This document shows positions 32,844-38,615 of a stretch of 64,000 bases of DNA, in pieces. Source of the DNA: Cyanobacteriota bacterium (GTDB taxonomy: Bacteria; Acidobacteriota; Vicinamibacteria; Vicinamibacterales; UBA2999); contig JAIEMQ010000015.1 of the NCBI GenBank assembly GCA_019752015.1, positions 140,205 to 204,204 of the forward strand, written 5' to 3'. The notes under the pieces are model-generated. The model did no database searches, had not been told where the DNA came from, and saw only the letters and a program-made list of their open reading frames with translations. A program made the position numbers and the translations under genes. Within the stretch, counting starts at the first letter, position 1. Each line of letters begins with the position of its first letter.

Positions 32844-35618
<2,775 letters not shown>

Positions 35619-35664: not shown

Positions 35665-36015
35665 TCAGGGCAAGGACTGCGGCGCGGCGAGGCGCGGCGC
35701 CTCGTTCAACACCGGTGAGGTGTGCTTCTCGGTTGCGGGAGCCGGCGCCTCGCCCGGCATGCGGTGCGTGCCTTCCTGCTGCTGTTCGAGGAGCGCCTCG
35801 AGCTCGCCGAAAGCGTCGCCCGCGGAATGGCGCGACTTGGCGACGCGTCTCACGCCGGACTTCGGCTTGGTCGGAGGCGTGTCATCCCACACGCGCATCT
35901 TTTCGCGGCGGCCCCAGATCGAGAGGGCGAGGCCAACGCCGAACCACGCTGCCCACTGCGCAGCGAGGGCCACCGGCATCGCCAGCAACAAGCCTTTCAG
36001 ATCGTCCATCGACAT
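35665..36015 (-). CDS. small membrane protein, hypothetical
   Basis: 116 aa with an N-terminal hydrophobic segment. Only 4 nt downstream of 36020..36703, so probably co-transcribed. Confidence 0.5.
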   Translation of the reverse strand: MSMDDLKGLLLAMPVALAAQWAAWFGVGLALSIWGRREKMRVWDDTPPTKPKSGVRRVAKSRHSAGDAFGELEALLEQQQEGTHRMPGEAPAPATEKHTSPVLNEAPRLAAPQSLP

Positions 36016-36019
36016 ATCG

Positions 36020-36703
36020 TTACGGGACCCACGAGAAGCGGTCCGCGCCTCCGAGTGAATACTTGGTCAACAAGGCTTCGAAGATCGGCGCACGGACCGC
36101 CTGCGAAGCCATCGCGGAGCGAAGCGATTGATCGATGTTGACGTTCTCATCCTGCTCGAGCACCAGGATGATCACGACGCGGCGCTGATCGGACGTTTCG
36201 TCCACGCCGGTCGGCGCATGATGGCCGACATTGAGTTTGCGCACCGGGATCGGGCGGTTGAGCGCCTCACGGACCCACACCGCAATCTTTTCGGCGCGGC
36301 GCGCGGCGCGCTTCTCTTCTTCGACGCGGCCCTCGGGGAACGACTTGCCCGGAGGAATCTCTTCCGAGCTGGCGCCGACGGTGATGATTTCGCGGGCGCT
36401 GTTGAGCACCGCCTTCATCTCCGGCGTAAACTGCGGACGGGCGCCGCCGCTTTCGACGGCGTCGAACGAATTGATGCGCCAGCGGAACTCGTCGCTGAAC
36501 AGCATGATGCGAAACGTCGCCTTGTTGCCCTCTTCGTCCGGGACGTTGCGAACCGTCACGTCCTTCATGACTTCGGGCGGCGTCGGGACGATGTACCACG
36601 CCTGGCGTACCTGGCCGGCGGTCGCGCCGGCGAGCCAGCCGCCGGCAATGACCCAGGCGACCGTGACGACATACCGTGAATATCTGACCAGTTTGTGCAC
36701 CAT
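36020..36703 (-). CDS. membrane-anchored hypothetical protein (weak OmpA/MotB-C-like pattern)
   Basis: TM VVTVAWVIAGGWLAGATAG. IITVGASSEE...KRAARRAEKIAVWV...DQRRVVIILV resembles the OmpA_C pattern (by eye only). Confidence 0.55.
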   Translation of the reverse strand: MVHKLVRYSRYVVTVAWVIAGGWLAGATAGQVRQAWYIVPTPPEVMKDVTVRNVPDEEGNKATFRIMLFSDEFRWRINSFDAVESGGARPQFTPEMKAVLNSAREIITVGASSEEIPPGKSFPEGRVEEEKRAARRAEKIAVWVREALNRPIPVRKLNVGHHAPTGVDETSDQRRVVIILVLEQDENVNIDQSLRSAMASQAVRAPIFEALLTKYSLGGADRFSWVP

Positions 36704-36824
36704 GTCTTACCGCCAAGCTGCAGGAATACTGCCAAGCGCTTATCGGCCAAAATGGCCTGAAAATATAGGCCTCGATTACGGAATTGTTGGTGCCTGATCA
36801 ATTTTGGGAGCATCCAATCGACAG

Positions 36825-37946
36825 ATGATCCAGCCCACCTACCCCGCCGCCAATCTTGTCGCTGACGCGGTGCAGGCGCATTTTGCCCGCCATATTGCGG
36901 CCGCGCGGCCGACAGATTTGGTGAATGGCGCGGATTCGCCGCCGCCGCTGGCGATCGCCTCGATCATCGACGCCGCGTTCTGGGCCAGCCTGCGACGAGA
37001 AGAAGGACAGGCGCCGAAGATTTCGCTCGCGTTTCTTCCTCCTGAACATGCGAAGCATCCGCTGCTGTTCGCGCAGAAGCTGCCGCTCGCGCCCGCGGTG
37101 TTGTCGAAAGTGGCGCCGGCCGTCGAGCGCCCCGGCATTCATCTCGGCGTGTGGCGCAACGGCGAGGAACTTTTCGTGTGGGGCACGACGCGCGAAGTCC
37201 CCGCCTTCTGTCTCGTCGTCGAAGTCGTCGCCTCCGGCTTGATCGTCGTCAAGCATCGCTTCGAGCAGTTCGGCAAGTTCGTGAACGTGGCGGTGCTCGA
37301 AGGCGATCAGATCAAGATCGTGGACGAGGGCGTCGGACGGGTGATGCCCGACTGCCCGCACGTGGTGTCGTCGCTCGCGGGCGCGATCGATCACAAGTCC
37401 GCGTCGGGCGTCACGGCGGTGCTGATTCTCCTGGCGACGTCGATGCGGCAACACGGCCGCGGCGGCGCGCTGCTCGTGGTGCCGACGGGCACCGACGCGT
37501 GGCGCGACTCGATCGTGACGCCGGTGTTGTACGCGGTCGATCCGCCGTACTCGGAGCTGGCGCAGCTGATGAAACTGAAGAACCCGGACCCCGACGACCT
37601 GAAGCGCGCGGTGGATGCGATCGCGGGGCTGACGGCGGTCGATGGCGCGACCATCATCAACGATCGCTACGACCTGCTGGCGTTTGGCGCGAAGATCTCG
37701 CGGCGGCGCGGCAGCACCACGGTCGAGCAGGTCAATGTGACGGAGCCGGTCGAAGGCAGCATCTCGACCATCGCAACACCGGCGCAGCTCGGCGGGACGC
37801 GCCACTTTTCAGCCGCGCAGTTCGTCCACGATCAGCGCGACGCGATGGCGCTCGTCGCGTCGCAGGACGGGCGCTTCACGATCTTCAAGTGGTCGCCGCG
37901 CGAGGCGTTCGTCCACGCGCACCGCGTGGACGCGCTGTTACTCTGA
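36825..37946 (+). CDS. DAC (DisA_N / diadenylate-cyclase) fold protein with an unrecognised N-terminal half
   Basis: GGALLVVP, AVDGATIIN (DGA motif), GGTRHFSAAQFV...DAMALVASQDGRFTIF (compare GTRHRAA...VVSEE.G.IS of CdaA/DisA). Confidence 0.7.
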   Translation: MIQPTYPAANLVADAVQAHFARHIAAARPTDLVNGADSPPPLAIASIIDAAFWASLRREEGQAPKISLAFLPPEHAKHPLLFAQKLPLAPAVLSKVAPAVERPGIHLGVWRNGEELFVWGTTREVPAFCLVVEVVASGLIVVKHRFEQFGKFVNVAVLEGDQIKIVDEGVGRVMPDCPHVVSSLAGAIDHKSASGVTAVLILLATSMRQHGRGGALLVVPTGTDAWRDSIVTPVLYAVDPPYSELAQLMKLKNPDPDDLKRAVDAIAGLTAVDGATIINDRYDLLAFGAKISRRRGSTTVEQVNVTEPVEGSISTIATPAQLGGTRHFSAAQFVHDQRDAMALVASQDGRFTIFKWSPREAFVHAHRVDALLL

Positions 37947-38615
37947 CATCCCTTCGGGGACGTCGCCTTCTTCCAGCGGCAACATTTCTTCCGGTACCGG
38001 CCGTTCCATCAGGACCGGCGGCGGCTCGAATCCAAGCTGCTGCGCCATGTCTTCGATCTTCGGCAGGTCGGTGAGGTCGTTGAGGCCGAAGCGAATCAGG
38101 AATTCCTTGGTCGTCCCGTAGAGGAACGGGCGGCCGATCACGTTCTTGCGGCCGACGATCTTGATCAGATGCCGTTCGAGGAGAGTCGACAACACGCCCG
38201 ACGTGTTGACGCTGCGGATCTCGCCAATCTCCGCCGCGGTCACCGGCTGCTTATACGCAATCACGGACAGGGTTTCGAGCGCCGCCACCGAGAGCTTGCT
38301 CGCGGAGCGCTCGTGGAACAGCCGCCGCACCCACTCGTGATATTCGGGCCGCGTCGTGATCTGGTAACCGCCGGCGACTTCGGCAATGTGCAGGCCGCCG
38401 CGATCGACGTAATCCGCCTTGAGCGCCTCGAGCGCCGCCTTGACGTCTTCCTTGGGCTCGTCGTTCAGCAGCCGGTTCAGCAGGCGCGGCGTGATCGGAT
38501 CCGGCGACGCAAACACCAGCGCCTCAATCACCGCCTTGAGCTGCGCCAACTCCATCCTGGGGACGGGTGCGTCGGGTGCATCGGGTGCGTCAGGTGCCGT
38601 GGTCTCGTCGCTCAT
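37938..38615 (-). CDS. scpB: SMC-Scp complex subunit ScpB
   Basis: ALVFAS..P, EVAGGYQ, YKQPVT..EI..IRGV-like motifs. The N-terminus carries APD x3 from a 9-nt repeat. Confidence 0.9.
   Translation of the reverse strand: MSDETTAPDAPDAPDAPVPRMELAQLKAVIEALVFASPDPITPRLLNRLLNDEPKEDVKAALEALKADYVDRGGLHIAEVAGGYQITTRPEYHEWVRRLFHERSASKLSVAALETLSVIAYKQPVTAAEIGEIRSVNTSGVLSTLLERHLIKIVGRKNVIGRPFLYGTTKEFLIRFGLNDLTDLPKIEDMAQQLGFEPPPVLMERPVPEEMLPLEEGDVPEGMSE
38565..38600. repeat. 9-nt tandem repeat (GGGTGCRTC x4) in the scpB 5' end
   Basis: gggtgcgtc gggtgcatc gggtgcgtc aggtgccgt. Encodes APDAPDAPDAP. Confidence 0.85.

Follow-up and report, generated by a model that had tools for sequence, protein, structure and literature searches.

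Gene 36825..37946, on the forward strand of the 64,000-nucleotide stretch of DNA analysed here (the window), is a typical member, with a very divergent DAC domain, of the DACNV-DAC family, which has been catalogued by domain architecture only. In the reading that we favour, with a probability of about 0.55, its product would be a stand-alone, cytoplasmic, sensor-gated cyclic-dinucleotide synthase with ATP as its most likely substrate.

Gene 36825..37946 and the two domains of its product

All three ORFs of the region were confirmed, 36825..37946 on the + strand and 36020..36703 and 35665..36015 on the - strand. For the first of them, the ATG at 36825, which gives 373 aa, was preferred over an upstream TTG at 36804 because this length fits the closest homologues, most of the nearest 120 in the database being 372-373 aa long. 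A database protein 100% identical to the product (MBY0494495.1) is labelled 'hypothetical protein'. At least 8000 homologues were found in a database clustered at 90%, at E <= 1e-3 the family comprised 2024 clusters (50% identity level), and ~80% identity was kept across the 120 clusters (90% level) around the protein. With such numbers of homologues and clusters the gene is beyond chance, real and strongly conserved, and the family is under strong constraint. Its parts are as follows:

36825..37946, + strand: DACNV-DAC gene (373 aa plus stop), coding for a two-domain protein predicted to be soluble
36825..37400, + strand: N-terminal module (aa 1-192), delimited on AF2 models
36930..37190, + strand: PF21751 DACNV region (aa 36-122; hmmscan E 2.1e-30, 105.2 bits)
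37407..37943, + strand: predicted DAC (DisA_N-like) catalytic domain (aa 195-373), from Foldseek and the Pfam matches of the family

The AF2 model of the whole protein reached a pLDDT of 93 and a pTM of 0.89. The sole hydrophobic window (aa 124-142) is confidently modelled as a beta-hairpin and is on this basis not a TM helix, in keeping with the initial annotation, which had described a protein with neither TM segment nor HhH domain. No further Pfam domain was found in it by hmmscan, HhH and CdaA_N included, and the chain stops at the DAC domain; an NCBIfam search returned noise only.

In the N-terminal half the initial annotation had recognised no motif, but had supposed one of the sensor modules described in fusion with DAC domains. 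Such a module was found, as PF21751 ('Probable sensor domain DACNV') was matched above the Pfam cut-off of 27 bits, and the same profile was matched by 37 of 37 diverse family members. DACNV is said to be among the N-terminal domains defined by Galperin in 2023 (J Bacteriol). Its signature in the ORF is FWASL..EEG (F52, W53, S55, E59, E60) plus W119-G120, and E60, W119 and G120 are invariant across the 37 diverse members. In the AF2 model, long helices (aa 7-30 and 41-56) and a beta-rich domain up to ~aa 166 are separated from the DAC domain by a linker of low confidence (aa 170-193). No structural neighbour of this ~165-aa module was found in the PDB (best Foldseek E 0.17). CdaM took the top two places among the Foldseek matches, at E 0.17-0.19 and an rmsd of 11-13 A, which raised the idea of a degenerate second DAC domain, dropped because hhalign to DAC profiles was non-significant (E 0.19 and 0.71, probability <1%).

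The C-terminal half, which had been assigned by eye to the diadenylate cyclase core, adopts a true DAC fold according to its model, as all 47 PDB matches at a Foldseek E <= 0.001 were DisA, CdaA, CdaM or DacA, with probability 1.00 and a TM of 0.5-0.59 on the target. The DisA_N profile search gave a divided answer: Pfam DAC (PF02457) scored 13.5 bits (E 0.056, aa 323-352 only) in the protein itself, below the gathering cut-off of 27 bits, but it was detected at E <= 1 in 35 of the 37 diverse family members, the best at 5e-8. Searches of the PDB by sequence, with the protein, a full-length family profile or a C-terminal profile, found no DAC, and the haemagglutinin and thioesterase matches that appeared in them (E 0.5-2) were attributed to chance. 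Verified CdaA and DisA sequences were used to build a small HMM, which found nothing in the window or in 83 related loci (1.2 Mb); this canonical HMM misses the DACNV proteins too, so that it can neither reveal nor exclude a second, canonical DAC, and the DACNV-DAC family is therefore strongly divergent. Fold and domain architecture can be regarded as established.

With CdaA/DacA, the membrane-anchored c-di-AMP synthase of Firmicutes (4RV7, 6HVL, 6HUW), the protein shares the DAC fold, DGA, T-R-H and, past the next strand, a Ser accompanied by an acidic residue, at 13-16% identity. However, the three-helix TM anchor of CdaA is absent and a ~190-aa soluble N-terminal module stands in its place, RHR is changed to RHF and SEE to SQD, ~22 extra residues lie ahead of GTRH, and cdaR/glmM neighbours are absent from the locus. 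DisA (3C1Y, 9Y4S) also shares the DAC fold and scores best of all in Foldseek (E 1.3e-4 to 1.5e-4), but carries its DAC domain at the N-terminus, followed by a helical spine and HhH, whereas here the DAC domain is C-terminal and ends the chain without HhH. From its own family (PF21751, here at 105 bits, then the DAC fold, ~373 aa) the protein shows no detectable difference and is an ordinary member.

Motifs of the active site

The motifs quoted in the initial annotation (GGALLVVP, DGA, RHF and SQD) were all located where it had placed them, and with the stretch that precedes GTRH they are:

37461..37484, + strand: GGALLVVP (aa 213-220), apparent counterpart of the canonical 'GALI' strand
37641..37649, + strand: DGA (D273, G274, A275), CdaA D171-G172-A173 in the hhalign register
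37692..37790, + strand: pre-GTRH stretch (aa 290-322), which follows the adenine-contacting strand and is ~22 residues longer than in CdaA/DisA
37800..37808, + strand: R326-H327-F328, altered RHR, aligned to CdaA R203-H204-R205
37860..37868, + strand: S346-Q347-D348, counterpart of CdaA S222-E223-E224 in the hhalign register

The hhalign register placed DGA, TRH and S-x-D on CdaA D171GA, T202-R203-H204 and S222-E224, respectively, E224 being the metal-binding acid in CdaA structures. GGALLVVP was matched to IGALISV by eye and by the strand order of the model; within the family G213 is invariant and G214 nearly so. DGA was invariant in the 37 diverse members; 119/120 close homologues have it, as do 81 of the 82 representatives with the motif located. 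R326 was invariant and H327 at least 90% conserved among the diverse members; S346 was likewise invariant and D348 at least 90% conserved, with SQDG in 119/120 close homologues.

The reading of RHF at aa 326-328 was confirmed, and the third Arg is lost throughout the family, so that RHF is not peculiar to this gene. The position is mostly occupied by L or Q, also by F, K, I and others, with R in only two of 66 representatives, and F after RH is a minority state (2/120 close relatives, in which L is usual).

The longer pre-GTRH stretch contains an insertion predicted by AF2 as an extra beta-hairpin (strands 303-306 and 315-317), with a conserved E-P pair (E306 P307) within it. The spacing from TAV-DGA to GTRH has a family median of 54 residues, and the distance from the D to the first R is 53 in this protein versus 32 in CdaA. 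The hairpin would lie over the base pocket, and the ~22-residue insertion, adjoining the base-binding region, could alter the substrate or the product.

Proposed function and its alternatives

The conservation of the catalytic residues is established: down to 29% identity, each is either invariant or conserved to at least 90%, which argues for retained catalysis. DAC activity requires head-to-head dimers, and regulators act by blocking them (PMC8573169). DACNG, DACNH and similar N-terminal modules of DAC proteins are considered sensory, and activity is retained in divergent DACs whose motifs are changed to DGF or GGR (preprint 10.64898/2026.08.10.743927). In the mechanism that we infer, two DAC domains would meet head-to-head and condense two NTPs, most likely two ATP into c-di-AMP, with D273 (of DGA), R326-H327 and S346/D348 carrying out the chemistry. 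The ~165-aa DACNV module, on its flexible linker, would detect a ligand or partner inside the cell and gate the formation of the productive DAC dimer; DACs are controlled in this way by N-terminal modules of other kinds and by partner proteins, GlmM among them. The cyclase product would work in trans on receptors encoded elsewhere, and the gene has no dedicated operon partner.

The incomplete RHR and the sub-cut-off Pfam DAC score weigh against the synthase reading. In the DisA of M. tuberculosis, changing RHR to AAA, all three residues together, kills activity (PMC3328451). A literature search found no assay of any DACNV-family protein. Neither a c-di-AMP riboswitch nor another c-di-AMP gene was found within the window (Rfam, whole window), a result that is uninformative either way.

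The alternative that survives best, although we hold it to be unlikely, keeps the same fold and regulation with a product other than 3'3'-c-di-AMP, for example asymmetric cUA or another nucleotide. It reasons from the missing third Arg in RHR and from the ~22-residue hairpin, which would remodel the lid over the base pocket, and it draws on the rarity of R at that position (L or Q in most members), on the conserved length of the insertion (spacing 54 vs ~32) and on its conserved E-P pair. A precedent is the PanS minimal DAC, a producer of 3'3'-cUA whose motifs read DGF/GGR and whose lid loop is extended, but the DS-2C DACs and one minimal DAC, likewise divergent, still yield c-di-AMP (preprint 10.64898/2026.08.10.743927), and the position of the hairpin over the base pocket is itself conjectural. 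In a wider form, to be taken with equal reserve, the remodelled site of the family (RH-L/Q/F, SQD, ~22-residue lid hairpin) would make a non-c-di-AMP signal, gated by a sensor fold new to the PDB, in a large chromosomal clade of soil bacteria (Acidobacteriota, Bacteroidota and Gemmatimonadota). DS-2C (DACNG-DACNH-DAC) and PanS resemble the present protein in their divergent DAC with partly altered DGA/RHR, and DS-2C also in its presumed N-terminal sensor module (preprint 10.64898/2026.08.10.743927), but the module here is DACNV, not DACNG/DACNH, and effector partner, defence island and PADLOC match are absent.

A catalytically dead DAC-fold protein, which would serve as receptor or scaffold by binding a nucleotide or a partner, seems to us improbable. 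The incomplete RHR, the sub-threshold Pfam DAC match and the lack of adjacent signalling partners would fit it, but down to 29% identity there is no exception at D273, G274, A275, R326 and S346 and hardly any at H327 and D348. Degenerate pseudo-enzymes usually lose such catalytic residues.

Firmicutes and Actinobacteria are the phyla in which c-di-AMP signalling has been studied well; to our knowledge it is almost unexplored in Acidobacteriota and Gemmatimonadota, both abundant in soil, and in many Bacteroidota. The DACNV-DAC family combines a conserved non-canonical active site with an N-terminal module that has no solved structural relative, and is a reasonable biochemical target because divergent DACs are capable of producing other signals, cUA for one. 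The gene described here, which belongs to a family that is known but uncharacterised, is of modest interest; the locus itself contributes family membership only, and the proposed connection with membrane effectors breaks down.

Neighbouring membrane-protein genes and genomic context

Upstream of the cyclase gene lie a spacer and two small genes:

36704..36824, no strand: divergent intergenic spacer (121 nt, GC 0.49)
36020..36703, - strand: 227-aa protein, membrane-anchored at its N-terminus, no known domain; a neighbour, not shown as a partner
35665..36015, - strand: 116-aa single-TM protein with a Pro/Ala-rich tail, fast-evolving; a neighbour

The initial annotation had joined the three genes in a second-messenger module, in which the cyclase would signal to the divergent 227-aa and 116-aa membrane proteins as its effectors. 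The genes are adjacent and divergent, blocks of the spacer are kept in close relatives, synteny is maintained in L001-L006 and L009, and the longest contigs of DAC and 227-aa database matches agree in length, which suggests that within the clade both genes share contigs. When nine loci with a DAC at least 70% identical (L001-L009) were compared with 74 loci with a DAC 55-65% identical, the small genes were near the cyclase only in the former, which are close relatives and also keep PQQ, histidine kinase, ScpAB and TrpS synteny. Even there, a transporter gene of ~1.6 kb intervenes between the cyclase and the small genes in L007, and L008 has the same separation of ~1.65 kb. Neither small gene was present in any of the 74 more distant loci, other Vicinamibacteria included. 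As the linkage is limited to relatives with general synteny and is lost in the distant loci, the module is unsupported and is largely refuted by this phyletic test, which the initial annotation had itself named; the small genes are lineage-specific neighbours and most probably not partners of the cyclase. Moreover, the DAC family (2024 clusters at 50%, at least 8000 matches) far exceeds that of the 227-aa protein (1176 matches), and Pfam finds a known nucleotide-binding domain in neither membrane protein, so that we regard the module as very improbable.

The lack of conserved neighbours is established more widely, none having been found for the cyclase gene across 80 genomes. The recurrent flanking families are generic and lie kilobases off (ABC-F ATPase, FtsX-type permease, TPR, TonB-type receptor, RecQ, DsbA-like and TamB), the neighbours being variable and housekeeping in kind, and the context of the locus is stable and housekeeping, with a histidine kinase gene on one side and scpB/scpA/trpS on the other. 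That the gene encodes a cyclase for defence against phages, like those of CBASS DS-2 or Panoptoo, is hardly credible: some DAC families do act as defence enzymes (preprint 10.64898/2026.08.10.743927), but PADLOC matched none of the three proteins, Pfam detects no DACNG or DACNH domain in the 373-aa protein, neither a Cap15/S2TM-beta-like partner nor a conserved neighbour accompanies it, the housekeeping context is syntenic, and plasmid or phage copies of the gene were not found by tblastn.

The two small proteins are membrane proteins as annotated, each with one hydrophobic segment, N-terminal in both: the 227-aa protein has it at aa 11-30 (KD19 1.54) and the 116-aa protein at aa 9-33 (KD19 1.67). 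The homologues of the former are all 'hypothetical' and are confined to a Vicinamibacterales subclade. The strings in which an OmpA/MotB-like pattern had been seen, KRAARRAEKIAVWV and DQRRVVIILV, are present in it, but a Pfam profile match is absent: nothing was found at E <= 5 in the protein itself, nor any Pfam OmpA match at E <= 5 in 12 members, and the family profile found nothing in the PDB. With hhalign against E. coli Pal/OmpA/MotB, E was 0.085 and the probability 0.7% over 36 columns; this short alignment covers the '...G..P....QRRVVII' stretch pointed out initially. The 116-aa protein is 27-52% identical in relatives where the DAC is 70-81% identical, and its gene is probably co-transcribed with the 227-aa gene, since it starts 4 nt past the end of the latter.

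The spacer has, as annotated, 121 nt and a lower GC than the window (0.49 vs 0.64). It shows no match to the sigma-70 consensus. Two blocks of it, TGCAG..TTGCCA and TGAC.AAAT[CT]GT, are conserved in close relatives, and it is probably a promoter or operator.

Fold and family of the cyclase-like protein

The three ORFs reported in the initial annotation were all present as described, and the motifs quoted for the cyclase-like protein were translated at the expected positions:

36825..37946, plus strand: cyclase-like gene, 373 aa
aa 213-220 of its product: GGALLVVP
aa 273-275: DGA
aa 326-328: RHF
aa 346-348: SQD
36704..36824: divergent spacer, 121 nt, GC 0.49
36020..36703, minus strand: gene for a 227-aa membrane-anchored protein
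35665..36015, minus strand: gene for a 116-aa membrane protein

The ATG at 36825 was preferred as the start of the cyclase-like ORF because most of the best 120 homologues have 372-373 aa and MIQPTY-like N-termini. At least 8000 homologues were found in a 90%-clustered database, the best 120 of these clusters being 79-100% identical to the query, and at 50% identity there were 2024 clusters at E <= 1e-3 and 208 at E <= 1e-30. These numbers show a real gene under strong selection. An identical protein, MBY0494495.1, is annotated only as 'hypothetical protein'. The 3' ends of the gene and of a convergent scpB-like ORF (37938..38615, minus strand) overlap by 9 nt (37938..37946), and no terminator-like hairpin was found between the two genes.

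The earlier guess that the N-terminal half is a sensor module proved right, as Pfam PF21751 ('Probable sensor domain DACNV') matched aa 36-122 with E 2.1e-30 (105 bits vs. a cut-off of 27). The DAC family (PF02457) gave only a sub-threshold match (aa 323-352, 13.5 bits, E 0.056), and NCBIfam and PADLOC scans of the protein returned nothing useful. When 37 diverse full-length relatives (29-54% identity with the query) were scanned singly, all of them matched DACNV and 35 matched DAC at E <= 1 (best 5e-8). The AlphaFold2 model built on the alignment of these relatives was very confident (pLDDT 93.1, pTM 0.89), and all 47 Foldseek matches in the PDB with E <= 0.001 were diadenylate cyclases (probability 1.00), namely DisA of M. 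tuberculosis and T. maritima, CdaA of B. subtilis, L. monocytogenes and S. pneumoniae, S. aureus DacA and Mycoplasma CdaM. Therefore, the proposed DAC fold is confirmed, with TM-scores of 0.5-0.59 normalised to the CdaA domain at only 10-16% identity. Profile-versus-sequence searches of the PDB with DACNV-DAC detected no DAC and a small canonical DAC HMM detected no DACNV protein; the homology to canonical DACs is remote.

The protein has neither the TM anchor of CdaA nor the HhH domain of DisA, from which it also differs in its C-terminal DAC domain, and it is not of the kind of the DS-2C or PanS defence cyclases. It is a regular member of the already catalogued DACNV-DAC architecture.

Active site and N-terminal module

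DAC domains bind ATP via their DGA and RHR motifs. Verified CdaA and DisA sequences were recovered from the PDB search output and aligned, and hhalign of the C-terminal family profile against this alignment (E 7e-4, probability 26%) gave the following register with L. monocytogenes CdaA:

D273-G274-A275: D171-G172-A173
T325-R326-H327-F328: T202-R203-H204-R205
S346-Q347-D348: S222-E223-E224

Among the 37 relatives, D273, G274, A275, R326 and S346 are invariant and H327, D348 and G349 are conserved in at least 90%. The change of RHR to RHF noted previously is true but family-wide: in 186 motif-bearing sequences, RH is followed by L (131), Q (18), V (9), P (7), F (5) or others, and by R in only two. 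Given this rarity of R, the altered RHR marks the whole DACNV-DAC family, with F as a minority state. One 50%-identity-cluster representative, P0145, showed scrambled sequence over the GTRH region (AARGTCPRRSSSHDQ) and part of the N-terminal domain, which looks like assembly frameshifts rather than a true variant, and it was left out of the sub-alignments.

DGA and the first Arg lie 53 residues apart, compared to 32 in CdaA, and the DGA-to-GTRH spacing is also long family-wide (median 54 between motif anchors). The extra ~22 residues, which contain a conserved E-P, were modelled as a beta-hairpin with strands at 303-306 and 315-317 and would fall, by sequence position, between the base-contacting strand (ASYL) and the GTRH helix of CdaA, that is, in the lid region. 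Remodelling of this region lets the minimal DAC PanS make 3'3'-cUA (preprint 10.64898/2026.08.10.743927).

In M. tuberculosis DisA, changing RHR to AAA abolishes ATP binding (PMC3328451); divergent DACs with DGF/GGR motifs are still active, their conserved contacts being an Asp and an Arg at the bottom of the site (preprint 10.64898/2026.08.10.743927). The protein under study is predicted to be an active enzyme, because Asp, the first Arg, His and the Ser/Asp pair show no or almost no variation. Its default product would be c-di-AMP; the lack of Arg at the third position of RHR and the insertion in the lid make another product a real possibility.

For c-di-AMP to be made, two DAC domains have to face each other head-to-head, an arrangement that regulators such as GlmM block (PMC8573169). 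In the simplest view, the DACNV module would sense a ligand or partner and thereby gate dimerisation, which fits published descriptions of such N-terminal modules (preprint 10.64898/2026.08.10.743927). No experimental work on any DACNV-DAC member was found in the literature.

Modelled alone (pLDDT 88) or in the full protein, the N-terminal module consists of a pair of long helices (aa 7-30 and 41-56) plus a beta-rich domain to about aa 166, followed by a linker of low model confidence (aa 170-193); the Pfam model spans only aa 36-122 of it. E60, W119 and G120 are invariant in the 37 relatives, and F52, W53, S55, E59 and P98 nearly so. Foldseek found no significant PDB neighbour for the module (best E 0.17, probability 0.2, rmsd > 11 Å), and no profile similarity to DAC domains was detected.

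Neighbourhood of the cyclase gene

When one genome per GTDB species was scanned, 551 confirmed loci were obtained, and the best 80 of these (DACNV-DAC identity 55-78%) came from Acidobacteriota (Vicinamibacterales, Pyrinomonadaceae, Blastocatellia, Bryobacterales), Bacteroidota (Pontibacter, Rufibacter, Pedobacter, Mucilaginibacter, Larkinella) and Gemmatimonadota (Longimicrobiaceae). The 227-aa and 116-aa proteins served as tblastn queries against these 80 and three metagenomic loci. Both genes were found only in L001-L009, in which cyclase identity is 70% or more and the whole synteny (PQQ, histidine kinase, ..., ScpB, ScpA, TrpS, M50) is also kept. Neither was present in the other 74 loci, although 8 kb of upstream sequence was covered in many of them and several are likewise from Vicinamibacteria. 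All-versus-all clustering of flanking ORFs revealed no neighbour common beyond genus-level groups, and the few recurrent families were generic and kilobases off. Thus, by the refuting test that came with it (no linkage in related genomes), the earlier proposal of a three-gene module fails everywhere outside a narrow clade, and the adjacency is inherited synteny rather than a sign of a functional module.

In L007 and L008 (cyclase 71-73% identical) the 227-aa gene lies ~1.65 kb from the cyclase gene. The gap in L007 holds one ORF:

L007:6349..7989, plus strand: polytopic membrane protein, on the cyclase strand and directly upstream of the cyclase gene; by eye, a short-chain fatty-acid/AtoE-like transporter

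The spacer has, as claimed, a lower GC content than the window (0.49 vs. 0.64). Two blocks in it, TGCAG-N5-TTGCCA and TGAC-[AG]AAAT[CT]GT, are kept in L001, L002, L004-L006 and L009 and are probably promoter/operator elements common to both divergent transcription units. The spacer (36704..36824) gave no match to the sigma-70 consensus.

The 227-aa protein combines an N-terminal hydrophobic anchor (aa 11-30) with a soluble part of ~190 aa that is highly conserved (80% mean column identity among relatives). Its family is far narrower than that of the cyclase, with 1176 matches, all annotated as 'hypothetical' and none with a Pfam domain. For the OmpA/MotB-like domain suggested previously, Pfam gave nothing at E <= 5 among 12 members, a family profile search of the PDB gave nothing, and hhalign against the E. 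coli Pal/OmpA/MotB C-domains was not significant (E 0.085, probability 0.7%). The 116-aa protein, with a single TM segment (aa 9-33), has a Pro/Ala-rich tail that evolves fast; it is 27-52% identical in relatives whose cyclases are 70-81% identical. Its gene starts 4 nt past the end of the 227-aa gene, so both are probably on one transcript. Convergent with the 116-aa gene, and part of the synteny in close relatives, is a gene for a 924-aa hybrid histidine kinase (32844..35618, plus strand) with a membrane N-terminus, PAS/GAF, HisKA, HATPase and a C-terminal receiver.

Role and distribution of the family

The stand-alone, chromosomal and syntenically stable context of the cyclase gene, flanked by the hybrid histidine kinase gene and scpB/scpA/trpS, favours a second-messenger role in housekeeping or physiology over one in defence; PADLOC gave no defence match at the locus, and no plasmid or phage copies of the cyclase were found. 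The interest lies in the family rather than in the locus, namely in its non-canonical active site, conserved lid insertion, N-terminal fold without a solved relative and 55-60% identity between phyla.

DACNV-DAC proteins of Bacteroidota (Pontibacter, Rufibacter, Pedobacter and Larkinella; loci L024, L025, L034, L043, L045, L047, L049, L051, L056, L061, L066, L071 and L078) are 56-59% identical to the acidobacterial query and so as close to it as many Acidobacteriota copies (55-65%), a sign of either transfer between phyla or unusually strong constraint. In several Vicinamibacterales species the only copies are ~60% identical, a hint of paralogous lineages. The source MAG is labelled 'Cyanobacteria bacterium' at NCBI (K2Y23_09780; protein MBY0494495.1), but the closest named relatives of the cyclase and its neighbour genes are from Vicinamibacterales or other Acidobacteriota and the GC content is 64%, so the bin is probably mislabelled.
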